A DNA stretch of 64,000 bases from Felis catus (lineage: Eukaryota): assembly GCF_018350175.1 (NCBI RefSeq), contig NC_058369.1, positions 11,780,001 to 11,844,000 of the forward strand, written 5' to 3'. The notes under the pieces were generated by a model. That model saw only the letters and a list, made by a program, of their open reading frames with translations. It had not been told where the DNA came from and made no database searches. Positions 2,534-60,404 of the stretch are shown here, in pieces. A program made the translations under genes and the position numbers. The first letter of the stretch is position 1, and every line of letters begins with the position of its first letter.

Positions 2534-4566
2534 ATCTCTGTTTAATAAATGAAATCAACAAATTATAGAACAAGAAGAAAACAAAGGAAAACAAGTTCCC
2601 AGGGAATTCAACAGAGGTGATGTCATGGGATCTCCTTAACCAGCAATTGGAATTCATCTAAACTGGCCATCTCCAGCCCCACCCCAACATTCTCTGTGCC
2701 TTCAGTCGGGGCTCCTTGGCATGCTTCCTTGAGAACACAGATAGATTAAAAATATCATAGACGTGACTGGCATTAAGGAGCCCAATGGCACATGCACCCA
2801 GCACAATCTGCCAAACTCTGCTGGCATAATAATCCCTAGAAACCAATTCCAAGTTTTGTTAGTGAACAAGCCATGGGATTTTCAGTGACACTTAAGGACT
2901 CATTAAAAGTTGGCTCACAATTCCCCACCCTCCACTTCATTTGTGGAAATTAAAGAGTCCCTGTGGATCAGCCACAGACCTGCAGGCAGATGAGATCTGA
3001 TGCACAGCCCAGGGCCAAGGTGGAGACAGGGCCAGGGATTCACCCCCCTCTGGAGAACTGGTCCCCAGATAGTTTTCCGACTTTGACTCAAGCCCAAACC
3101 TGGCCATTTGATTAACATCAAGAGACAGAAGTGGCAACTGAGGTGACATTCTCTTCCCCCACAGGATTCCCAGAGCTGCAAACAGCTGAATGCTACAACA
3201 TGCACACTGGGGCTCCGGGCAGCAGAACCCAAGCGTGCAAAGCACCTGCTGCCGAGCGTGGCCGCTGTGATCGCTCCGCGCTGCTGACTATGCGGGTGGG
3301 GTGTCCAGAGCTCCGAGGGCGGCTGACAATTCTACTTCTGCAGCAGGCTCACTGCAGTTATGGGTATTACCTGGCCAACACCGCCCCTCCTTCCCCACTA
3401 CACTGGCAGCCCTGAGAGGGCAGGACCAATCTGAACTTGCTTAGCATTGTGTCCCCCCAGCCGGGCACCTAATAGGTGTTCAATAAAACTGGCTGAGAGA
3501 ACAAACTAGCCTCTCACTACAACCCTATGGGAAGTCCCTGTGCTGCAAGGTCCCCCTGAGGTGTGAATGGCTATTCCCCAATTTATCTGAAATTCACTGA
3601 CATCACAGCCAGTCTCCCTCTTGTAAACTGTGTGTCATCTAACGCCTGTTGGGGTTATGGGGTAACGTACTCTGTAATCTGATCCCCATCTGCCACTTTT
3701 GGCCATTTTGAGCCACTCACCCCTCTTGCTGCCCAAGACTCTGTCATGTCGGCCTTACTCTGTTCCTTGGATGGACAATCATCTTTTTGCCTCAGGTCCT
3801 TTGGACATGCTGCTCCTTCGGCCTGGTGTACCCTTTCCTCTCACTCTGCCCCTGGAACAAATGTCGCAGCTGAAATGTCACTTTATCCACGAACCCGCCC
3901 CCCTATGCCCACCTGTACCCTCCCTACTCTCTGTGGATTGGTTTTTGGGCTCCTACAGCCAACCACCTTCCTTCCCTCAAACTCCTCACCCTCTCGTCTA
4001 CATTCAGTTATCCCTCATCCACCCTCGCCCTTCTACTGCAATGTTCACAGGAGCAGGTATGTCAGTCACGGTGGGCTCCCTGGCGAAGGGCTCAGGCATT
4101 GCATACACAGCTGTTGGACACATGCTGGCTGGGGCTGGACTTCCTCTGAGCTGGAGATAAGAGTTACCTCGTGCACAGTCTTTGGGTACCGAGGCCGGAC
4201 ATGCTTATCAAACTAAGCAGCTGGTGTGCCCTGTTCCGACTTTACCCAGTTATCAAAGAGCAGATCAAGCATGAGGCTTCCTCCCCTCATGCACCGTGAG
4301 GGGATGAGGGGGGACTTCTTAAGCAAGACGATGACCAAGGATTTGAAGACTTCTTCAGCTTGACTTAACTGGGCAATCCGCAGTGGGAGTTGTGTCCTAT
4401 AAACACTCACAGTGTCCCTGGTTTGTGCTAGAGATGGAAAGTGACTGGACCCGAGCTCCACCTCTAAGAGCAACTGGACAGGAGGGGGAGACAAGCGAGC
4501 GCTGAGGTCATTCAAATCTGGGAGATAAATGCCATGAAGATACAACTGACTCCCAGGACGCCACAG

Positions 4567-4588
4567 CCCCCCCCCCCCCCCCCCCCCC
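4567..4588. repeat. Poly-C run (22 nt)
   Basis: Read directly. Confidence 0.9.
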
Positions 4589-4657
4589 GACCTCCATGAG
4601 AGCCATCGAGGTATAAAAAGCCAGGAAGGAAAGCCACTGACGGTGAACTCACCACCA

Positions 4658-4672
4658 ACACTAGAGGGCGCC
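4658..4672 (+). promoter_or_regulatory. CTCF-like motif
   Basis: ACACTAGAGGGCGCC closely matches the CTCF core CCACTAGAGGGCGC; motif match only. Confidence 0.35.
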
Positions 4673-7551
4673 GTCCTGTACTTGTGTCTGGGCTCAGGTG
4701 GAAGACACAGGGGCGCGGTGCGGTGGAGGGAAGCAGGTGCAGGGCTCTACTCTTGGGGACAGGCTGGGTCTGAGCCACCTCTCCGTCTGCAGCTGGTGAC
4801 TCTAGCACCAGCAAGGGCTGATGGTCGTCTGGGGGACAGAGCCACTTGAACAGTGCTTGTCGGTCACCCCTGCTCAGACCCGGTGGCGAGACCCAGAAAT
4901 GCACGGGCCTGTCTGGGAGAACAGCTGAGCAGAGCTGCAAGGCTGTGGCTCAAAGCGACTTTGGTTATTGGCCGTTTATCTCCGGTGGCCACACACTCAC
5001 TGCCGGGCACACAGCAGGTGCACAGGAAATACCTGTGAGACGAAAGAAAGCAGGGTGCCCATCGTTCAAGAAAACATTTGAAATGGGCGCTGAGCGGGGA
5101 GAGGAGCTCGTGTCGACCAAGCACCTACTGAGTGCCAAGCTCTGCACACATGGTGTCTGTTATCCTCACTCAGCCCCATTTCACAGAAGAGCAGGTGAGG
5201 CCCGGAGAGGCCAAACCACTTGTCTGGGGCCACAGCGCCCTCTCCAGGCAGGGCTGCAAGATGCAGCTGAACTGAGACCTTGGTCTCCACTCCTCCTGGG
5301 GCTTGGTATTGACTCCCGTGTGCGATGTTAGCCTGGTATCCTGACCTCTCTGGCCACCCAGAAGCAGCAATAAAAGAGATTTCTCCTTCGTCCTGAGCTC
5401 ATTTCTTGGTTGACCGTGTGTGTCTCTGATGCCTTTCCCGATTTGAGTTGTGCCAGAAAATCCCCCAGATTCGCCCCACATTCTGGCTCTTCTGCTGTCC
5501 CAGTGGGATAGAGCTTAGAGGAGAGTGTTGGCTGGACCTCAGTCCAGGCTGGCACCTCCTTCCAGCCCACTCTCTCCTCCTGGGCCCTAGAGGGGCGGTC
5601 CTGCGGTGCCTCCAAGTCCCTTCACATTTTGGCTCCAGTCTGACTCCCCAGCCTCCTCTGAGCTCGTTCTGGACACTTCTCCACGCCTTGGCTCTGCTGG
5701 TTCCTCTGCCTGCCGTTCCGTCCCTGGCACCGTGTGCGGGAGACTTTTCATCCTGCAGAGTTCAGCTCAGGTGGCATGTCCCTCCTTTGTCGCCTGCACT
5801 ATGGGGTCTCACAGCACTCACTGCATGCCTTCCTTCACTGTTTTCTTTAATGCATTTTTATTGAACATTTACTATGTGCAGGAATCATTTTTGATGTTGG
5901 GAACACAGCATGGAACCAGTGAGGCACTGTCCCTGCCCTTATGATGTCACAGTGTCACGGGAGACAGCGACCCATAACCAGGTAAGGACAACACTGTATG
6001 ATAGGGGATCTCCGGGGAAGCGAGGAGTCAGAGAGGCACCAGACCCAGCCAGGAGTGGGGTAATCACGAAAGGCTTCCTGGAGGAGGTGGCAGGTGATCT
6101 GAGACCAGTTAGTTGAGGCAGATGGGAGGGAGGCATGAGGGATGTGGTGGGACCTGGGGTGAGAGTCTGGTACATTCAAGAAATTGAAAATGCTCCCATC
6201 TCATTTTAGCCTAGAGATGCAAAATGAGGGTGGTAGAATTGAAGGAGACATGTCCAATATTCAGCCCTTAGGGGAACCTGCCCTTTCTCCAGAATCCACC
6301 TGTGAGCCCAGATGAATGCCTGGCCCGTGTTTGGGGGCTCCTGCTACTACTTTTCCTCAGACAACTTTTCTGGAATCAGGCAAGTCTCCCTTGCACAGAA
6401 GGGTGTTCACCTAGTCACTACCAGTGGTCAAACATAACAGGTGGGGACAGGTGGGCCTTAGGGCCCTTCTCCAAGACAGTGCAGGGGCATGTCCTGTCCT
6501 TTGCAGGATCCATTCCAAACCCCATTGTCCAGCTTTCAGGCCCATAGCTTATCTCCCCCAAGCTCACCCAGCATGTGGACGTAACCCAACCACACAGTGT
6601 CCCATTCTCTACATTACTGGTCTCCGTCCCTATGGCAGGAATTCCTCTCCCTCTGCTATCAGCCCAGAGAAGGCCTTTTTCATCATCCTTCCAGCGCCAG
6701 GGACCACATTTCCCACGGTGACCAGCAGATGTCGCCCTCACAGCCTTGCCCCAGAGCACCATGGCTCATCCTTGCTGGGTCTGGGACTGGATGCGATATA
6801 TCTCTGTGTCCCCAGAGCCTGTAATAGTTGCTGGCACTTGGTAGAGACTCAATAGATGCCTGGTGTGGAGTTTATTGACCGAGCCACTCCCACTGGCCAG
6901 AGGGCAGTTCTCAAGTCTGGAGTTGAACATCCTGTAATAAAACTCATGGATGTAGTGTTTTTGTGGTGTTTGAGGTTTAAGAGTGCCCCCCCCCAAAATA
7001 GACATGGGGACCAGGGTTGTCCCTGGAAGGTGACAGGCACCAGAGGGGAGTGAAAAGTTTGAGACAATTCTTTCCTATGGCCAAGACCCACTTGAACTCA
7101 CTGTGGTCCTGGGGGCCTGGAGTGTTCTTTCTGGAAGCCACTGACAGTCTTGTCTGACCCCGGATAGCAGAGGAGGACTTCCCTCGAGGAATGCTTTTGA
7201 AACTGAGGCCCCCCTGTTGTTCAGGACCCAGGTAGGCGTCCTGCTTGGCCAAGTCTAGGAGTATTACTGTGCCTCTCAAAATACCCGTAGCTGTATGTAT
7301 GGGAGGCTTGTGAATCACCAGATACCATGATCTCTAAACAGAGAACATCCCTGATCGGTGGGGGATACTTATTCCCATTTTATAAATAGGGAAACTGAGG
7401 TTGATAGGTTAGGGGAGTGTATTACATGTCATCAGAGTAAATGAGTAGGAGATGTGGGGCTCTGAAAACTTTATAAAAATCATGAAAGATAAAGCACAGA
7501 CTGAAGGAACTCAGAAAATCCTAGCCGGGTGAATTCCAAACAGCATATGGA

Positions 7552-7591: not shown

Positions 7592-8233
7592 GCAACCTGC
7601 TGAAAACCAAAGAAAAGGAGAAAAATCATAATGGCACTCAGAGAGAAAAAGACACGTGAAATGGCACGATGTACGAACGTTTCCTAACAGTGGGTTTGGT
7701 AAATAGAAGCCTCTCCGTCAACATGAGCTTGCCTCTTCTTACCCCATCGCATTCTCCATTTAAGATGTAACATCACAAAGCCAACGTGTGGGGAAAGGAG
7801 TGGCCACGTGCTCTGAGAGAGCATAAACGTAACTCCAGTGCTGAAATTACTACAATTTTATCTCTGAGAAAATGGGGGATTTTTTGAAACAAATGGAACC
7901 AGAAGCAAATGCACCACAAACTTCGAAGCAGATTTCTGGGGCGGCTACTGTCCCCCGAACCGAGAGGGAAATGACAGCTGCAGAGAATACTTGGGACAAA
8001 ACACCTTTTCCAAGATGCTAATGCCATCTCCCGGTGGTGTGAATTGGTGATAAGCCATCTAGAGACCTTGGGGGCCTCACTGAGCCAGGAAGGAAACATC
8101 TGATGGTTTACGTGGGGGGTGGCATTTCCTAGTATAGGATGGGCGTGTCTTCAACAATAACAAGAAGGGCTGTGGGTAGCTAGACCAGAAGGAGCTGCAG
8201 CCACAGGTGAACACACGCACAGGACCTCACACC

Positions 8234-8270
8234 ATGGAAGGAAAATATCCGCCCATCCAGGGGAAACCGG
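8234..8270 (+). CDS. C-type lectin coding exon 1 (cytoplasmic tail MEGKYPPIQGKP)
   Basis: accATGG Kozak context; donor G|GTGAGT at 8271; 37 nt, phase 1 matches the next exon. Confidence 0.78.
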
Positions 8271-10624
8271 GTGAGTCAAGAGGCCCAGGGCAGGAGTAGG
8301 TGCCCTCAGTACCAGCGACGGCTCCTTGCTTTCCACTCCAGGGCACGGTTCAGGCCCATCCCTCATCCCTCCACATTCCTGGCATGATCCTGGCAGACCA
8401 TGTGCACCGCCTCATACTTGCTGCATTCCCCGCAGCACAGAGGGACCAAAGGCTGCCCCAGGATGACCCCTGGAAGTTTTTCTGCCTGGCAATGACTCTG
8501 ATGCTGCTTCTGTTCGACCTCATCCTAGGTGTGGTCCTGGCTGAGGGTAAGGTGGTGAGCCAGTGGGAAATGGGTGATCACATGGACCAAGTCTTGAGAA
8601 GCAGGCCCTACAGGGCTGGGGCAGAGATGGGTCAGTAAGGGGGTGGCTGGACTGCATCGCTGGACTTCATGATTTTAGAGGGGACCTGCCCTCCTTGTCT
8701 TAGCCTGCAGTTTGGGGAGTGGGAAAAGAACCGGGTGCTGAAAGGTCTAGAGCACATCAGCACGTGTCTCTCCTAGTACTGCTGTTCTCCAACAAGATGC
8801 AGGAAGACCTCAAGCAAATGGACATCCAATGTGAGTGCTGAACGAAACGGAGGGCTTTCTTCCCACACGCACCACCAGGTCTTGATCCGCCTTTCTCTGT
8901 GGGCCTCTTAGTTGTGCAGGGTCTGGCAGATGCTGGGCACGAGCGGGACATCGTGTGGGGAGAGGTGTTCCGGCAAACGGAAGCTGTGCGGGCAGGCAAC
9001 GGTAAGGAGGCAGGGTGGGCTGGGTGGTGGGAACTGGGAGTTGGAAGAGGACTGCTGTTGTCTTCAGCCCTGCTGATGGTAGTGGTTCTTATAACACGCG
9101 AGCGGGTGTTGGGTTGTTTTAATCGATCCTCTGTCAAGGTGGATGCCAACATAAAGTGTGAGGCCCCTTGCATGTATCACTCTGCCACCTGGTAAGGCCC
9201 GGCTCTTGCATGAACACATGGGAAGCTACTGTGCTCATCTTGGCAAAGAGGCACGGATGAACAGGTTTGGATCATTTCACCTCTGGAGGCCAGTGCAGCC
9301 TGTAGCCTCAACAGAGCTGATGTCCCTCCCCTTCTCCAGAATCCTCCTGTGAGCCCTGCCATGAAAACTGGACGGCATTTCAGGGCTCCTGCTATCAATT
9401 TTCCACACAAGAACTGAGCTGGTTCAAAGCCAAGGATCACTGTGCAGAGAAGGGTGCTCACCTGGTCATCATCAACAGCCAAGCAGAGCAGGTGAGAAGC
9501 AGGGAGGGGTGCTCTGGAGACCCGTCAAGTCATTGCAATCTCATGTCCTTGTTCCCTGTAGAATCCAGTGCAAATCCTGCATTCTGTCCTTCATAATGTC
9601 CTTCCGCTGTTTCAGCATGCAGCGTTGCCCAGTATTCAGTCCTGCTTCTGAATGATTCTTCATGGTGGCCCTTCTGTCTGGAATGCTTCCTTCTATCTAC
9701 CTGGACAGCTCCTACCTGTTCTTCATCAGATCAAACTTTGTCCTTCAGCATCCTTCCCACCCCCTCTTCCTTAATACTGGACTATGCTGCCAGATCCCTG
9801 GTTCATCTCCTTGCACATGGAGAACTTCCCGGCTAGGGGTGGTTCTGACTCATTCATGAGTCCATACTGCCTGGAACCAGATTGGACACACTCAGTATGG
9901 TTCAGCGGACTCAATGTTTGTCAGTGGAATCCAACTGATTGCCAGAACATTTTCTATGGAGTAGTGTCCAGATTCCTCACCCTGTTAACCATGCCCTTGA
10001 ATAATCCTATCTACCCTTTAACCAGGCAGTGCTCATCTAGGAGCCATACTGGGCTCTTCTTCCCTCATTGAAGTTTCAGAAAATCCTGGAAGGCACCTGC
10101 CATTGTTACCCCCATTTTACAAATGAAAAGCCTGAGGACCGTAAGTGTCCATAATTTGCTAATTACACAGGTCATAATAATGGTGGAAATGGTCATCTAC
10201 CTAGAGCTTTAAGCCAATGTGTTCAATGGCGACATTGGAGGACATCCTTGCCCATGGGGTCCCCTAGGTCTTAGTCCCTTTCATGGACTGCTTCCACTGC
10301 CATTCTCACCTCTGGATGTAGTCTTTCCTGACTTACTTTGCCTTCTTCTCATGCAGAAATTCCTGAGTCCAAAGGAAAATAATGGCTACTGGATTGGCCT
10401 CAGGAAACAATACCCAAAGGGCATTCACAAGTGGCAAGATGGCTCAGTCCCTACCTTCATGTGAGTGTCTCTGTTGGACTCAGAACACCTGAGCTTGTCC
10501 CATTGAATCTTGAAGACATCCTCCCACAGATTCTCAAATTGCCTCAAGGGTCTGATTTTGGCCTGAACCAAACTTCCTGTCATATTTCCAGTTGTCATGC
10601 TTATTGCTATTTTGTTAGCTGCAG

Positions 10625-10667
<43 letters not shown>

Positions 10668-12364
10668 CCATAATTAAACAACATTAAATAGGAAGTTCTT
10701 TATTGTAGGAAGGTCTCAGTGCCTTTAATACATTGAAGAGAATTGTACACTCTAAGGAGGGAGTAGACAGTGTGTGATGTACCAAGCTTATTGAGAGGCC
10801 CAGCTCATCTGGATATATCTGGAGCTTCTAGTGTCCTATAAAACACACCCAAGGAATCACTGCCCAGGGGATCCAGTCCTAACCCCTCCATGTATGATTC
10901 AATGACCTCACATTCTGGTCATCATCTGTTTTTGGACTTTTTTCGTGTCTACACACTTGACCAGAACCACACGCTAAGCCTCCTGGACCATCTTGAGTAC
11001 ATCTTCTCTCTTTCACTTCCACTGCTTCTGCCTCAGCTCAGGTCAGGACAATTGCTGTATATCCTGGACTTAGTCTTACCTTCATCAACCCATGCTCTAG
11101 TCAAGTTCAAGGGGCCATCTTCCTAAAACACGCCCTTGATATGCTTTTTGGAAACACCCGATTCCTCAGTGCCACATGGATAACCTAGAATCTTCAGATG
11201 GCACCTTTCAATTCCCACATAGTGGGTGCCAATTCATCTTTATACCCACATCTCCTACACTCCCAAGGGCTCTCCACCCCCTTGCCACAGCTATGTGGTA
11301 AATGACTCATCTTTTTGGATATTGTCTTGTATCTTATCTTTATGCTTTTGTTCCTGCCGTGTCATCTATCTGGAACATCTTTCACTGGCTCGTGTCAAGC
11401 TTCATAGAAGAACCCATCCTGGGCCCAGCGTGAATTAATCCAACTCCCTTAATATCCCAGTCATACCCTATGTAGAGTTTTGTAGCTGTGTTAATTATGA
11501 TCTTCCTTTGCCTATGTATGTCTTGCCCATCAGACAGGCTGCTACTTTAGGGCGGAGCAGGCTTCCAACACATGGGTGTGTCTCCAGTTTCCAGTACAGG
11601 GCTTGGTACACAGCAGGTGCACAATGAACTATATTGGAATGAATGAGTGAGTGAGTGTTATAAGCATTTCAAGAAATGTTTAGGAAAGAGAGTATAGGAT
11701 CATTTGACAGACTTGTCACATGTTATACACCAGACATTCAAATGTATCATGTTCTCAAACTTAATCTCAGAGATCCAGGGATGTTAAGTCATTTGTCTGG
11801 TTTGGCCTCATTTGTTTCATTTATAATTCAAGATTATTATTATAAAACAGATGATTACTATAAAACAGTGGTGCTCAAAAGGTGGTGGTTTCTTCCTAGA
11901 GACAACTGGCACTGCAATATTTTTGGTTGTCACAATGGAGAGTGGGTAGAGACCAGCCATGCCACTCAATGTCCTACAGTGCCCAGGATGGCCCCACACA
12001 ACAGATAATGATAAAGCTCCCGATGTAAATATTTCCTTCATGTAAACACAGTGCTGTAATATATGGTTAGGATATTTTACTTTTAGGATTACTCACATAT
12101 CCCCAAGGAAAGACCTTTGCCAGTAGCCTTATTCTCTTCTGGGATCTTGTTGGTGAGCCCAGCTGGGCATGGCTGAGTGTGGCTTGCCCAGCACTGTGGT
12201 TAAGGGACCGGGCTGATCCTTGTATTTGTTTTCACAGCAACTGGCGTGATACCAGATCTTCTCACTATGACTGTGCCTTCCTGATGGGTTCTGGCTCTTG
12301 GTCCTCTACTACATGCTATGCGTATTGGTATCATTGGATATGTGAGAAGCCACAGGTCTGCTGA
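8234..12364 (+). CDS. Intact 7-exon type II transmembrane C-type lectin, CLEC4G/LSECtin-like paralogue, 224 aa: join(8234-8270,8436-8546,8777-8830,8912-9001,9340-9491,10357-10460,12238-12364)
   Basis: Assembled by hand. Kozak accATGG at 8234; six GT-AG introns with matching phases (1,1,1,1,0,2); exon sum 675 nt = 224 codons + TGA. Protein: MEGKYPPIQGKPAQRDQRLPQDDPWKFFCLAMTLMLLLFDLILGVVLAEVLLFSNKMQEDLKQMDIQFVQGLADAGHERDIVWGEVFRQTEAVRAGNESSCEPCHENWTAFQGSCYQFSTQELSWFKAKDHCAEKGAHLVIINSQAEQKFLSPKENNGYWIGLRKQYPKGIHKWQDGSVPTFINWRDTRSSHYDCAFLMGSGSWSSTTCYAYWYHWICEKPQVC. CTLD hallmarks: 8 Cys, WIGL, W.DG, WICEK. Confidence 0.9.
8436..8546 (+). CDS. C-type lectin exon 2 (transmembrane helix)
   Basis: Acceptor ttccccgcag, donor G|GTAAGG; 111 nt phase 1-1; hydrophobic FFCLAMTLMLLLFDLILGVVLA. 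Confidence 0.88.
8777..8830 (+). CDS. C-type lectin exon 3 (neck)
   Basis: Acceptor gtctctcctag, donor T|GTGAGT; 54 nt phase 1-1; (V)LLFSNKMQEDLKQMDIQ. Confidence 0.82.
8912..9001 (+). CDS. C-type lectin exon 4 (neck, LSECtin-like helix)
   Basis: Acceptor ggcctcttag, donor G|GTAAGG; 90 nt; VQGLADAGHERDIVWGEVFRQTEAVRAGN resembles recalled human CLEC4G VTQGLAEAGRGREDVRTELFRALEAVRLQN. Confidence 0.9.
9340..9491 (+). CDS. C-type lectin exon 5 (CTLD part 1)
   Basis: Acceptor ccccttctccag, donor CAG|GTGAGA; SCEPCHENWTAFQGSCYQF...W..A.DHC...GAHLVIINS..EQ. Confidence 0.95.
10357..10460 (+). CDS. C-type lectin exon 6 (CTLD part 2)
   Basis: Acceptor cttctcatgcag, donor AT|GTGAGT; KFL...GYWIGLR...KWQDGS. 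Confidence 0.95.
10626..10661. repeat. (GT)n microsatellite in lectin intron 6
   Basis: Read directly. Confidence 0.95.
11866..12030 (+). mobile_element. MER20-like hAT DNA transposon in lectin intron 6
   Basis: cagtggtgctcaa...ggttgtcacaa...gggtagagaccag...cacaacag pattern; similar copies near 15020, 29130, 30820, 32830, 41850 and 63400. Confidence 0.7.
12238..12364 (+). CDS. C-type lectin exon 7 (CTLD part 3, stop codon)
   Basis: Acceptor tgttttcacag; phase 2 completes ATC; NW...DCAF...W...C...WICEKPQVC*. Confidence 0.93.
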
Positions 12365-12690
12365 GATGCTCCCTTTCCTCTGTCTTCAGTCTTGGGAAAG
12401 ATTGTCTTGATATGTGACCTCATAACAATTCCCCAGCTTGGCTGCAGAAAAGGGGGTCTCCTGAAAGCCCTAGTCCTCTTGGTAGCGTTGTCTCCCTTTC
12501 TTTCCCTTACTTCTAAATTTTGTTGGGGTATATGTAAAATAACACCAGGATAAAACAATGAGCAAAATATATCGTGTAGGACATTCTACAAGACAAATAA
12601 TCTAGTTTTGAAAAAAAAATGACAGAAAGGCAAATGTCATATTATTAGATATAAAATAAAATATAAATAGATAAAATAAAAGAGTCTTAA

Positions 12691-12857
12691 CTGAGAATAA
12701 ACTGAGAGTTGACGGGGGGTGGGAAGGAGGGGAAAGTGGGTGATGGGCATTGAGGAGGGCACCTGTTGGGAGGAGCACTGGGTGGTGTATGGAAACCAAT
12801 TTGACAATAAATTTCATATTAATTAAAAACACAAATAAAATTTGAATCTCATATAAA
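12691..12857 (+). mobile_element. 5'-truncated carnivore/felid L1 3' end
   Basis: ctgagaataaactgagagttgacggggggtggg...ggaaaccaatttgacaataaa; flanked by 18-bp TSD aaaataaaagagtcttaa. Confidence 0.85.
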
Positions 12858-17950: not shown

Positions 17951-18886
17951 ATGGAGAATCAGACGCGAGTCTTCGAATTCATCCTCCTCGGCCTCTCCGA
18001 GCAGCCCCTACAGCAGCAGGTGCTCATTGGTGTGTCCTGCAGCCTGTATCTGATCGGATGCATGGGGAATCTGCTCACCATCCTGGCCATCCTCTTGGAC
18101 CCTCACCTCCACAGCCCCATGTACTTCTTCCTCAGCAACTTGTCTCTTCTGGACATCTGTTTTACCTCCACCACCGTCCCCAAGATGCTGGTGAACTATC
18201 TGTGCAGACACAGCACCATCTCCCCCCAGGCTTGCCTGGCACAGATGTATTTCTTCATTGCCTTTGGGGCAGCGGAAAGCATCCTTCTCTCAGTCATGGC
18301 TTATGACCGCTACCTGGCCATCTGCTGCTTGCTGCGCTACATGACGATCATGAACGTCCTTCGTTGTGCCTTGCTAGTGACCGTGCCCTGGACCTCGGCA
18401 AACCTCATCTCCATGGTCCATACCATCCTGATGACCCGCTTGTCCTTTTGCACCAATAGGACCCCACACTTTTTCTGTGACATTAATGCCTTGATCAAGC
18501 TTTCCTGCTCCAACGCGCAAGTCAACGAGATGTTGATGCTGGTCCTTGGGGGTTCGGTGGTTCTGATGTCTTTTGTGTGTATCACGGCCTCTTATACACC
18601 TATTGCTGTGGCTGTGTGAAAGGTGCCCTCAGCCCAGGGGAAGTGGAAAGCTTTCTCTACCTGTAGCTGTCACCTTTGTGTCATCTCTCTCTTCTATGGG
18701 ACTATTATTGGGGTCTACTTCAACCCTGCATCCACACACACCACCCAGAGGGACATGGTAGCCACAGTGATGTATGCCATGGTCACCCCCATGCTGAACC
18801 CCTTCATCTACAGCCTTCGGAACCGTGATCTGAAGGGTGCCCTCAGGAAACTTCTTAAAGGAAACCTCTTGGCTAAGCCTCTTTGA
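17951..18886 (+). pseudogene. Class II olfactory receptor, family 1 (probably OR1AB-like), with one in-frame premature TGA at 18617-18619
   Basis: ORFs 17951-18619 and 18623-18886 are in the same frame and together give 311 codons with OR motifs [45 protein letters not shown]. The OR1AB assignment rests on recalled synteny. Confidence 0.92.
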
Positions 18887-35736: not shown

Positions 35737-36684
35737 ATGAAGAAAGGCAATTTCTCAGCAGGGACTGAATTCATCCTCGTGGGCTTCTCCACCTTCCCCC
35801 ACCTTCAGGTGATGTTCTTCCTGCTGTTCCTGCTTATGTACCTGTTCACGCTGCTGGGGAACCTGCTCATCATGGCCACAGTCTGGAGCGAGCGCAGCCT
35901 GCACACGCCCATGTACCTCTTCCTGTGCACCCTGTCCACCTCCGAGATCCTCTACACCTTGGCCATCACCCCGCGCCTGCTGGCCGACCTGCTCTCCACC
36001 CGCCACACCATCACCTGGGCGGCCTGTGCCAGCCAGATGTTTTTCTCCTTCACGTTCGGCTTCACCCACTCCTTCCTGCTCACCGTCATGGGCTACGACC
36101 GCTACGTGGCCATCTGCCACCCCCTGCGCTACAATGTGCTCATGAGCCCCCGCGGCTGTGCCTGCCTGGTGGCCTGGTCCTGGGTAGGTGGCTCGGTCAT
36201 GGGGCTGGTGGTGACCACGGCCGTTTTCCACCTCACCTTCTGTGGACCCAATGAGATCCACCATTTTGCTTGCCACGTGCCCCCTCTATTGAAGCTGGCC
36301 TGTGGAACTGATGTACCAGTAGTGGCCAAGGGCGTGGGGCTGGTGTGCATCATGGCCCTGCTGGGCTGCTGTCTCCTCATCCTCCTCTCCTATGCCTTCA
36401 TTGTGGCCGCCATCTTGAGGATCCCCTCAGCTGAGGGCCGGCACAAGGCCTTCTCCACCTGTGCATCCCACCTCACTGTGGTCATTGTGCACTACGGCTT
36501 TGCCTCTGTCATCTATCTGAAGCCCAAGGGTCCCCAGTCTCTGGAAGGAGACACCCTGATGGGCATCACCTACACGGTCCTCACCCCCTTCCTCAGCCCC
36601 ATCATCTTCAGTCTCAGGAACAAGGAGCTGAAGACTGCCATGACCAAGACCTTCCTCAACAAACTCTACCCAGAAAAAATATGA
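35737..36684 (+). CDS. OR10H1-like: Intact olfactory receptor, OR10H subfamily, 315 aa
   Basis: Single-exon ORF with LHTPMYLFL, MGYDRYVAICHPLRY, KAFSTCASHL, PFLSPIIFSLRNKE; close to recalled human OR10H1 including the C-terminal KLYPEK; splice acceptor cttcgccccag ends at 35725. Confidence 0.96.
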   Translation: MKKGNFSAGTEFILVGFSTFPHLQVMFFLLFLLMYLFTLLGNLLIMATVWSERSLHTPMYLFLCTLSTSEILYTLAITPRLLADLLSTRHTITWAACASQMFFSFTFGFTHSFLLTVMGYDRYVAICHPLRYNVLMSPRGCACLVAWSWVGGSVMGLVVTTAVFHLTFCGPNEIHHFACHVPPLLKLACGTDVPVVAKGVGLVCIMALLGCCLLILLSYAFIVAAILRIPSAEGRHKAFSTCASHLTVVIVHYGFASVIYLKPKGPQSLEGDTLMGITYTVLTPFLSPIIFSLRNKELKTAMTKTFLNKLYPEKI

Positions 36685-47911: not shown

Positions 47912-48871
47912 TCAGGAGCTCTGGGGATGGAGTCTTCTGAGGAAGGTCTTGGTCATGGCTGTCTTCAGCTCCTTGTTCCTGAGACTGAAGATGATGGGGC
48001 TGAAGAAGGGGGTGAGGACCGTGTAGGTGATGCCCATCAGGGTGTCTCCTTCCAGAGACTGGGGACCCTTGGGCTTGAGGTAGACGACAGAGGCAAAGCC
48101 GTAGTGCACAATGACCACAGTGAGGTGGGACGCACAGGTGGAGAAGGCCTTGTGCCGGCCCTCAGCTGAGGGGATCCTCAAGATGGCGGCCACAATGAAG
48201 GCATAGGAGAGGAGGATGAGGAGACAGCAGCCCAGCAGGGCCATGATGCACACCAGCCCCACGCCCTTGGCCACTACTGGTACATCAGTTCCACAGGCCA
48301 GCTTCACCACAGGAGGCACGTGGCAGAAAAAATGGTGGATCTCATTGGGTCCACAGAAGGTGAGGTGGAAAACGGCCGTGGTCACCAACAGCCCCATGAC
48401 CGAGCCACCTACCCAGGACCAGGCCACCAGGCAGGCACAGCCGCGGGGGCTCATGAGCACATTGTAGCGCAGGGGGTGGCAGATGGCCACGTAGCGGTCA
48501 TAGCCCATGACGGTGAGCAGGAAGGAGTGGGTGAAGCCAAACGTGAAGGAGAAAAACATCTGGCTGGCACAGGCCGCCCAGGTGATGGTGCGGCGGGTGG
48601 AGAGCAGGTCGGCCAGCAGGCGCGGGGTGATGGCCAAGGTGTAGAGGATCTCAGAGGTGGACAGGGTGCACAGGAAGAGGTACATGGGCGTGTGCAGGCT
48701 ACGCTCGCTCCAGACTGTGGCCATGATGAGCAGGTTCCCCAGCAGCGTGAACAGGTACATGAGCAGGAACAGCAGGAAGAAGGCGGGCAGGAGATGCCTT
48801 GGGAAGGTGGAGAAGCCCACGAGGATGAATTCAGACACGGAGCTGTGGTTTTGGCCCAGCGTGGCGGCCAT
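47912..48871 (-). CDS. OR10H2-like: Intact olfactory receptor, OR10H subfamily, 319 aa
   Basis: Single-exon ORF with all OR motifs; N-glycosylation sequon NHS; acceptor ctctccccacccag two bases upstream of the ATG. Exact orthologue uncertain because of gene conversion. Confidence 0.95.
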   Translation of the reverse strand: MAATLGQNHSSVSEFILVGFSTFPRHLLPAFFLLFLLMYLFTLLGNLLIMATVWSERSLHTPMYLFLCTLSTSEILYTLAITPRLLADLLSTRRTITWAACASQMFFSFTFGFTHSFLLTVMGYDRYVAICHPLRYNVLMSPRGCACLVAWSWVGGSVMGLLVTTAVFHLTFCGPNEIHHFFCHVPPVVKLACGTDVPVVAKGVGLVCIMALLGCCLLILLSYAFIVAAILRIPSAEGRHKAFSTCASHLTVVIVHYGFASVVYLKPKGPQSLEGDTLMGITYTVLTPFFSPIIFSLRNKELKTAMTKTFLRRLHPQSS

Positions 48872-58997: not shown

Positions 58998-59948
58998 TCA
59001 GGAGCTTAAGGGACTAAATTTTTTCCAGAAGCTTTTCTTTATGGCATTCTTGAGCTCCTTATTCCTGAGACTGAAAATGATCGGGCTGAGAAAGGGGGTG
59101 AAGACTGTATAGGTGGTGGCCATCAGGGTGTTACTGTCCATAGAATGGGGGCCCTTGGGCTTGAGGTAGATAATGGAGGCAAAGCCATAGTGCACAATGA
59201 CCACAGTGAGGTGGGACACACACGTGGAGAAGGTCTTGTGCCTGCCCTCAGCAGAGGGGATCCGCAATATGGCGGCCACGATGAAGACATAGGAGAGGAC
59301 GATGAGGAATAAACAACCCATCAGAGCTGAGACACATACTAGGATCACACCCAAGGTGACAGAGGATGTCTCCTTCCCACAGGTCAACTTTAGAAGGGAA
59401 AGCACGTGGCAGGCAAAATGGTGGATCACATTAGACCCACAGAAGGTGAGGTGAAAAACTATCAGCGTCAACATTATCCCCATGACTGAGCCACCAACCC
59501 AGAACCAAGACACAAGGCGGGCACAGCCACGGTTGCTCATGAGCACATTGTAGCGCAGGGGGTGGCAGATGGCCACGTAGCGGTCGTAGCCCATGATCAT
59601 GAGCAGGAAGGAGTGTGTGAAGCCAAACGTGAAGGAGAAAAACATCTGGCTGGCACAGGCCATCCAGGTGATGGTGCGGTGGGTGGAGAGCATGTCAACC
59701 AGCATGCGAGGGGTGACGGCAACGGTGAACAGAATCTCGGAGGTAGACAGGGCGCAAAGGAAGAGGTACATGGGCGTGTGCAGGCTGCGCTCGCTCCAGA
59801 CCGTGGCCATGATGAGCAGGTTCCCCAGCAGCGTGAACAGGTACATGAGCAGGTACAGCAAGAAGAAAGCAGGCAGGAGATGCCGTGGGAAGTTAGAGAA
59901 TCCCACAAGGATGAACTCAGTCACCACGCTGTAGTTCTGACCAGGCAC
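58998..59948 (-). CDS. OR10H3/4-like: Olfactory receptor, OR10H3/OR10H4-like, 316 codons open, but the conserved start codon is GTG (functional status uncertain)
   Basis: No internal stops. VPGQNYS aligns with recalled MPGQNY/MPSQNYS of human OR10H3/4; motifs CHVLSLLKL, KTFSTCVSHL, MATTYTVFTPFLSPIIFSLRNKELKNAI. The ORF-track extension to 60053 runs through a polypyrimidine tract and AG, so it is probably intronic. Confidence 0.8.
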   Translation of the reverse strand: MPGQNYSVVTEFILVGFSNFPRHLLPAFFLLYLLMYLFTLLGNLLIMATVWSERSLHTPMYLFLCALSTSEILFTVAVTPRMLVDMLSTHRTITWMACASQMFFSFTFGFTHSFLLMIMGYDRYVAICHPLRYNVLMSNRGCARLVSWFWVGGSVMGIMLTLIVFHLTFCGSNVIHHFACHVLSLLKLTCGKETSSVTLGVILVCVSALMGCLFLIVLSYVFIVAAILRIPSAEGRHKTFSTCVSHLTVVIVHYGFASIIYLKPKGPHSMDSNTLMATTYTVFTPFLSPIIFSLRNKELKNAIKKSFWKKFSPLSS

Positions 59949-60404
59949 GGGTGCTGCATCTGGTGAGATCAGAAAGGGAATGAAGGTGTGTACTTTATCC
60001 CATGAATAACAAAGATGATTCAGTGTCAGAAAACCTATCATGTGATCAGTCACAGGAATAAACTAAAATAAATATCATATAATTATATCAATTCAGGCAG
60101 CAATCCTGGATTGCTAAAGTTTGATTACTGTTTATGATTTTAAAAATTAATACATAATTATCAAAAATATTGTATTATTTTAGATATACAGTATATCTGT
60201 ATACTGTATATACTGTATATACAGTATTATTTTAGATATACAGTATATCTGTATATCTGTGTACATATTGATATATGTACACATCTTAAAGATTTTTTAG
60301 AAGTTTCTTCTAAATATGAAATCAACTGGACTTTTCTTAGATAACTAAGAATATACACTAGAAAACTAGCAAGAAGTGGGAGAAAATAGATGCACTATTT
60401 TAAA

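Follow-up and report, generated by a model that had tools for sequence, protein, structure and literature searches.

An intact, spliced C-type lectin-like gene of the domestic cat, probably of the CLEC4O lineage, that appears to have lost its Ca2+-dependent sugar site

The 64,000-nucleotide stretch of the domestic cat (Felis catus) genome analysed here (RefSeq assembly GCF_018350175.1, contig NC_058369.1, forward-strand positions 11,780,001 to 11,844,000; hereafter the window, whose own coordinates are used for features) carries at C2:11.79 Mb a seven-exon gene, gene A, whose product ends in a domain of the C-type lectin-like kind (CTLD). Its plus-strand open frame of 224 codons, read with GT-AG boundaries at all six introns, predicts a protein in which a tail of some 25 residues is followed by a single hydrophobic helix, a neck of 48 residues and a CTLD that has eight Cys (101, 104, 115, 132, 195, 209, 218 and 224) and with Trp at 108, 125, 160, 174, 185, 204, 213 and 216. 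The original prediction, made from sequence alone, described a CTLD that had lost its Ca2+/sugar site and gained an aromatic patch, and placed it at 10357..12364, an interval that holds exons 6 and 7 only, whereas the CTLD already begins in exon 5 (9340). The features of the gene are as follows:

8234..8270, + strand: coding part of exon 1, the ATG and a short cytoplasmic tail; RNA-like contigs start at about 8209-8214
8436..8546, + strand: exon 2, the remaining tail and the single predicted transmembrane helix (type II), with the felid-specific Asp40 codon at 8516-8518
8777..8830, + strand: exon 3, neck, predicted helix; absent from (skipped in) some RefSeq isoform models
8912..9001, + strand: exon 4, CLEC4G-type neck helix, with the N97 glycosylation sequon at its end
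9340..9491, + strand: exon 5, CTLD part 1, with C101, C104, C115 and C132 and with W125-F126 at 9420-9425
9468-9488, + strand: residues I141, N143 and E147 of the remote Ca2+ motif, in exon 5
10357..10460, + strand: exon 6, CTLD part 2, with WIGL, K165, K169 and the conserved Y167
12238..12364, + strand: coding part of exon 7, CTLD part 3 and the TGA stop
12242..12274, + strand: long loop W185-C195, four residues short and with no EPN or QPD; Y193 stands where site 2 has its Glu, and D194 is retained
12245..12325, + strand: residues 186-212, the former sugar-binding face and fastest-changing part of the CTLD
12299..12307, + strand: WSS in place of WND; carnivore rows read W-F/S/L-S
12317..12337, + strand: aromatic run Y210-W216
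12344..12346, + strand: E219, final residue of the remote Ca2+ motif
12365..12720, + strand: 3' untranslated region, end approximate; contigs end at 12680-12756, with AATAAA/ATTAAA hexamers at 12655 and 12675

Gene A is intact, transcribed and spliced. Five of its six splice joints were recovered in all four RNA-like sequencing runs, from four studies, and the first joint in three of the four, the RNA label of these runs (X1, X2, X3 and X12) being a guess backed by their GT-AG joints alone, since none of the runs listed as carrying the gene is recorded as RNA; a single 1059-base contig spans all six joints. Neither of the two DNA-like runs yielded any joint, though all 30 bins were covered. 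Among raw reads, a single-cell run (X21) reached about 10-fold depth on exon 7 and less than 1-2 elsewhere, too few for joints, and of the reads of a bulk run (X24) hardly any fell on the gene. The domestic cat RefSeq model "CLEC4G-like" is identical to the window protein across residues 32-224. A processed copy was considered as the identity of the gene and rejected. One contig of run X18 carries an unverified A>G change at 10429 that would turn K173, otherwise invariant, into Glu, and runs of two related species show 2 and 1 coding changes in the gene, too few for a selection test.

Ca2+ site 2 of CTLDs requires EPN or QPD together with WND (PMC7276794). In gene A the stretch NWRDTRSSHYDC (12239-12274) holds the long loop, W185 to C195, as a Trp, nine residues and a Cys with no EPN or QPD; the WND position reads WSS (12299-12307) and the C-terminal stretch reads CYAYWYHWIC (12314-12343), all in one plus-strand frame of exon 7 and all as the original prediction had read them. 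The W185-C195 spacing is 9 residues in gene A, against 13 in CLEC4G and marsupial relatives, and this shorter length is common to carnivores, armadillo and tamandua. EPN/QPD and WND occur in none of the 31 aligned gene A orthologues (rows), in none of 19 rows of a paralog, B, and in all 16 CLEC4G rows, while marsupial and monotreme relatives have WND in 13 of 13 rows and EPN in 12 of 13, the miss being a model gapped at that point. In CD23 the site-2 ligands are Glu249, Asn251, Glu257, Asn269 and Asp270 (PMC8255853). Aligned through cat FCER2, the first two fall into the 4-residue deletion of gene A and the last three correspond to Y193, S205 and S206. Positions of site 1 that are acidic in sugar-binding CD23 are K165 and K169 in gene A, with Lys165 already present in marsupials. 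The predicted loss of site 2 thus holds up, and the view that gene A has no Ca2+-dependent sugar site is well supported by these alignments.

A further Ca2+ site, overlooked in the original prediction, keeps its motif. Exon 5 aligns with Mincle over the remote Ca2+ motif, in which we take I141, N143, E147 and E219 to be the ligating residues (site 4). N143, E147 and E219 are kept in 31/31 gene A rows, the motif occurs in 19/19 B rows and in 13/13 marsupial and monotreme rows, and its Asn is found in 0/16 CLEC4G rows. In Mincle, Dectin-2, ASGPR and DCIR there is a bound remote Ca2+ whose role is unclear (PMC5076529, PMC5555199). Because this motif is retained, the gene A protein may not be calcium-free, and "Ca2+-free" is not supported; the earlier term "Ca2+-independent" overstates the case.

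Three homologue searches (10, 48 and 44 hits) and 18 cluster look-ups recovered gene A orthologues from felids, hyaenas, meerkat, canids, bears and mustelids; armadillo and tamandua have two genes each, and B was found in carnivores and tamandua. Hippo and aardvark models end before the last exon and were excluded from the motif census. Among the hits there was neither an A nor a B from any primate, rodent, bat, horse, ruminant or seal; as the searches were word-indexed, these absences count as weak evidence. A profile search among representatives was dominated by multi-CTLD proteins, and the five single-gene relatives among the 150 listed had all been found already. The domain itself scores 66.1 bits against Pfam Lectin_C (PF00059; cut-off 22.6, E 5.7e-18).

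Paralog B lies about 140 kb from gene A on the minus strand (L001:9455-2992, C2 about 11.929-11.935 Mb). It encodes 242 amino acids, is intact with the identical seven-exon plan, and has a full-length loop, no EPN or WND and no aromatic run. Two trees, one of the CTLD (41 rows) and one that adds the neck (34 rows), recover A and B each as a clade, unite the two (support 95/92 and 100/99) and place marsupial "CLEC4G-like" proteins as sister to the pair (97/92; 95/86), with placental CLEC4G apart. The opossum member of this group is named CLEC4O in UniRef (K7E1E6, a database label). Gene A also sits in a cytochrome P450 and olfactory receptor setting like that of the human CLEC4O locus, which we take to hold a pseudogene or non-coding gene (alias LINC01835) beside OR10H genes. 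Human CLEC4O is listed at chr19:15,856,586, with a CYP4F2 variant 23 kb away, at 15,879,621 (PMC12559834, PMC10390489). Trees, database label and synteny together make it likely that gene A belongs to the CLEC4O lineage.

CLEC4G (LSECtin) itself is ruled out as its identity by the separate clades and by the true cat CLEC4G, which keeps EPN and WND and lies 5.7 Mb away at C2:6.07 Mb, with CD209 (6.05 Mb) on one side and FCER2 (6.10 Mb) on the other. The closest site-bearing relative is marsupial CLEC4O and not LSECtin, as had been proposed. Of the glycan- and virus-binding ancestor proposed with it, the sugar site stands, on the marsupial and monotreme counts given above, and nothing seen here is a sign of virus binding. 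The ancestor would have borne EPN and WND under either tree topology, and a single site loss before the A/B split is the simplest reading. Three monotreme relatives (P0099, P0100 and P0101) carry acidic site-1 residues in addition to EPN and WND, a pattern that suggests a stepwise loss, of site 1 in therians and of site 2 in placental A and B. RefSeq names B "CLEC4G" in cat and dog and the gene A orthologue "CLEC4G" in ferret and panda, and studies of LSECtin in virus attachment in these animals could therefore pick the wrong gene.

The original prediction also argued from the eight retained Cys for a folded, selected domain. An AlphaFold2 model of the jaguar orthologue, a protein with 6 differences from that of the window, has CTLD topology, with a mean predicted local distance difference test (pLDDT) score of 76, values of 81-96 in eleven of the blocks that cover 101-220, and 62 for 181-190. 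Its top Foldseek matches are CD23 structures, at template modelling (TM) scores of 0.83-0.87, and DC-SIGNR gives 0.79-0.80. The core-disulfide Cys and WIGL are present in the sequence, and the CTLD fold is a predicted one.

Six of the seven residues between C209 and the I-C of the final strand are aromatic (F/W/Y/H), against one or two in cat CLEC4G, CD209, FCER2, paralog B, one marsupial and one platypus row; tamandua has a similar run. Every one of the 27 carnivore rows keeps W213 and Y214 and has H or Y at 215, while residues 210, 211 and 212 require 6, 8 and 3 changes on the species tree. The predicted aromatic patch accordingly survives as W213-Y214-[HY]; Y210, A211 and Y212 are hypervariable, W216 belongs to the ancestral core, and the last strand of the model begins at 214. 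Conservation of YAYWYH as a unit is ruled out by the variability of its first three residues. Among mustelids, W185 is Gly in two otters (P0010, P0086) and W216 is Ser or missing in mink and European mink (P0009, P0079), and these core Trp changes may possibly reflect a recent weakening.

CD23 residues Trp184, Val185, Arg188, Tyr189, Arg224, Cys259, Cys273 and Lys276 form one exposed region (PMC8255853). By alignment they map onto W125, F126, K129, D130, R164, C195, C209 and Y212 of gene A. The same CD23 region presumably also contacts IgE.

Substitutions are concentrated on the former sugar face. Counted by parsimony on a topology taken from general knowledge, with one row per species and many rows near-identical, residues 186-212 require 64 changes (2.37 per site), against 85 at the other 100 CTLD sites (0.85 per site; scan-corrected p 0.004). 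Sixty-two of those 100 scaffold sites are unchanged, and 8 of the 27 face positions, including T188, S190, D194 and S206, are invariant in the 27 carnivore rows. Between cat and four caniforms the nonsynonymous divergence (dN, here a minimum since orthologue rates come from proteins only) is 0.25-0.39 for the face and 0.07-0.10 for the rest of gene A, so that the face changes 3.5-5 times faster. The corresponding minimum values are 0.15-0.21 and 0.02-0.04 for paralog B, and 0.04-0.12 and 0.04-0.07 for CLEC4G. The scaffold is clearly constrained by this measure, in keeping with purifying selection on a domain that is not decaying, as originally argued.

How the face rate is to be read depends on the neutral rate, which between cat and dog we take as 0.2-0.3. 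The face exceeds neutrality if that divergence is 0.2 (p 0.016) and does not if it is at least 0.3, and the cat A-versus-B comparison (dN 0.43, synonymous divergence (dS) 0.99) allows a higher local neutral rate. The fast face would fit positive selection or relaxation equally well.

Our preferred reading, which we hold to have an even prospect of being right, is that gene A encodes an oligomeric type II receptor that binds a putative protein on its remodelled face. A CLEC4O ancestor with EPN and WND, as still seen in marsupials, would have come to have a shorter neck and no site, and would have been duplicated, before placental mammals radiated; carnivores and an anteater still have both copies. 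The 48-residue neck would form a coiled-coil oligomer, and a remote Ca2+ held by I141, N143, E147 and E219 may stiffen the domain without touching the ligand. The conserved residues F126, K129, D130, R164, Y167, W213 and Y214 would form or support a docking surface that matches the CD23 surface around Trp184, Val185, Arg188, Tyr189, Arg224 and Cys273, with the variable 186-212 segment tuning specificity. Since the tail has no conserved signalling motif, the protein may serve adhesion or capture, or may signal through a partner chain: a YPPI motif occurs in 3 of the 9 A tails examined, feliforms only, and the A tails and membrane helices examined have no basic membrane residue and no conserved Tyr motif of the immunoreceptor tyrosine-based inhibitory or activation kind (ITIM/ITAM). 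Asp40, within the predicted membrane helix, is present in 9/9 felid rows and 0/17 other carnivore rows; such an acidic residue could pair with a basic residue of a partner chain.

Several results weigh against this proposal. Approximately unbiased (AU) tests fail to reject the topologies A+B+CLEC4G (p 0.061, 0.11) and marsupial+CLEC4G (p 0.11, 0.111); the rate of the face can be explained by neutrality, as for a disused surface; the aromatic run is missing from both armadillo A genes and from paralog B and is not clade-wide; and W185 is Gly, and W216 altered, each in 2 of 27 carnivore rows. Moreover, CD23 contacts IgE through loops 1 and 4, and as this interface is mainly hydrophilic (PMC3944690, PMC3807792), the aromatic run has no direct match to it.

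A bolder extension, which we consider rather doubtful, is that in placental mammals CLEC4O turned from a sugar receptor into two orphan receptors for proteins, which may pair as an A/B heterodimer. Positive selection would be diversifying their former sugar face in answer to a ligand that itself changes fast (an immunoglobulin Fc, or a protein of a parasite or microbe), and carnivores and xenarthrans would have kept the system while humans lost it.

It is unlikely, though worth serious attention, that gene A instead binds a glycan or lipid without Ca2+ site 2, its exposed Trp and Tyr stacking on sugars as in Dectin-1 or lining an acyl groove as in Mincle. Aromatic residues are the usual sugar-stacking residues, which counts for such binding, and the Mincle groove residues, as we assume, follow the beta4 Cys or sit in the long loop, where gene A has Y210 and H192/Y193. 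Ca2+-free carbohydrate and lipid binding do occur among CTLDs (PMC7276794), and the hydrophobic groove of cow Mincle consists of Phe197/Phe198 with Leu172/Val173 (PMC5076529). However, across the 27 carnivore rows position 210 is Y, Q, S, H or R and position 192 is H, D, Y, G or E, whereas a fixed small ligand usually leads to a conserved site; the face of CLEC4G is no faster than its scaffold in three of four comparisons.

Also unlikely is that the face is disused and the protein acts as a partner subunit (with B, itself or another receptor) through its neck and membrane helix, W213 and Y214 being structural and the remaining aromatic run drift. The divergence of the face fits neutral rates of 0.3-0.55, which the local A-versus-B dS of about 1.0 allows, the A and B necks are of equal length and the two genes co-occur in carnivores and tamandua, residues from Y214 onward lie in the last beta strand, and MCL (PMC5555199) offers a precedent, being a group II chain whose sugar site does not work. 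A disused face sits less well with its eight invariant positions (T188, S190, D194 and S206 among them), with the 9-residue loop length kept in carnivores, armadillo and tamandua, and with W213, which took the place of a polar residue and then stayed fixed.

That gene A is a decaying LSECtin duplicate on its way to becoming a pseudogene is very improbable. The hippo and aardvark models that stop before the last exon, the lack of primate, rodent, bat, horse or ruminant orthologues among the 48 and 44 hits, and the presumed pseudogene or non-coding state of the human CLEC4O locus would all suit decay, but it is largely refuted by frame and rate data: in 27 rows from carnivores and 4 from xenarthrans the frame stays open and includes the last exon, transcripts are spliced, scaffold dN is low and 62 of 100 scaffold sites have not changed. 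Weak Ca2+-dependent sugar binding through a site rebuilt from D187, T188, S190, D194 and S206 is scarcely credible. In its favour, EPA or EPR suffices for sugar binding by surfactant protein A (PMC6791321), and T188, S190, D194 and S206 are invariant in 27/27 carnivore rows. Against it, none of the five site-2 ligands is left, the Pro has gone too and the loop is shortened; surfactant protein A differs at one residue only, and 6 of 27 rows have N or A in place of D187.

Among known proteins, marsupial CLEC4O shares with the cat gene an L-V-I-I-N...EQ motif, a Lys after WIGLR, the 8-Cys pattern and the C-terminal spacing; it retains EPN, WND and a longer neck, whereas the cat gene, one of the two copies seen in placentals, has neither motif and has lost four residues from its loop. 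LSECtin, at 34-38% identity, has the same type II layout, a homologous neck end, an 8-Cys CTLD and the same CTLD exon borders, but differs in its longer neck with extra Cys, in the missing remote-motif Asn and in its conserved face. Primate CD23 (FCER2), a group II CTLD, is the best structural match to the model; it binds IgE without sugars, and sugar binding has been lost in most primates (PMC6791321). In human CD23 one Ca2+ remains bound at site 2 and raises the affinity for IgE, whereas in the cat gene site 2 is wholly gone.

MCL (CLEC4D), Mincle, Dectin-2, DCIR and ASGPR belong to another subfamily and locus than the cat gene. Mincle, Dectin-2, DCIR and ASGPR carry a remote Ca2+ but keep the sugar site and have their fourth disulfide N-terminal; MCL, like the cat gene, has no canonical site residues, and it showed no sugar binding (PMC5555199). 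A language-model feature search ranked KLRG1 clusters second and third at 0.90, a lead only. Group V receptors (KLRG1, NKG2D, CD69, CLEC9A and Dectin-1) have a short long-loop, no Ca2+ sites, and protein or Ca2+-free glycan ligands. Their origin is independent, the cat gene coming from the CLEC4G/CLEC4O branch and having no conserved ITIM/ITAM or basic membrane residue.

Sugar-site loss in group II CTLDs is already known from primate CD23 and MCL, and the cat gene is apparently an undescribed further case: no description of it or of the CLEC4O pair was found in the literature searched, which did not extend to subscription papers and supplements, and the available portions of PMC9339297 and PMC7403975 do not mention the cat gene. 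Gene A represents an old, complete loss, as against the partial, recent loss in primate CD23, and the marsupial protein with its intact sugar site is a clean ancestral control. For cats, dogs, ferrets and bears, A and B add two receptors that likely serve immunity or adhesion and for which the hits included no working counterpart in human or mouse.

Searching the cat genome with exon 5 gave 26 matches. At window 6281-6443 lies a lone broken exon 5 copy with a frameshift and a stop, 73% identical to A and 67% to B; no other exon remnants were found near it, and it is likely the relic of a third gene copy. A 3.4 kb inverted duplication, 97.2% identical, joins window 2797-6238, upstream of A, to L003:9949-6523, downstream of B, about 135 kb apart; it is much younger than the A/B split and has a TATA-like box near window 4610.

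Cytochrome P450 exons lie at C2:11.63, 11.74 and 11.77 Mb, the nearest 20 kb upstream of gene A, and olfactory receptor genes lie downstream of it inside the window; the CYP4F and OR10H subfamily names of these neighbours are assumed or taken from database names. Intact olfactory receptor frames, which we take to be OR10H-like, occupy window 35737-36684, 47912-48871 and 58998-60041, the first two nearly identical and in opposite orientation. A further olfactory receptor frame at 17951-18619 ends at 222 amino acids and is probably a pseudogene. Two database mis-models reflect this neighbourhood: in P0061 the puma gene is fused with an olfactory receptor, and P0088, a fragment from the spotted hyaena, bears the name of a CYP4F3 hydroxylase.

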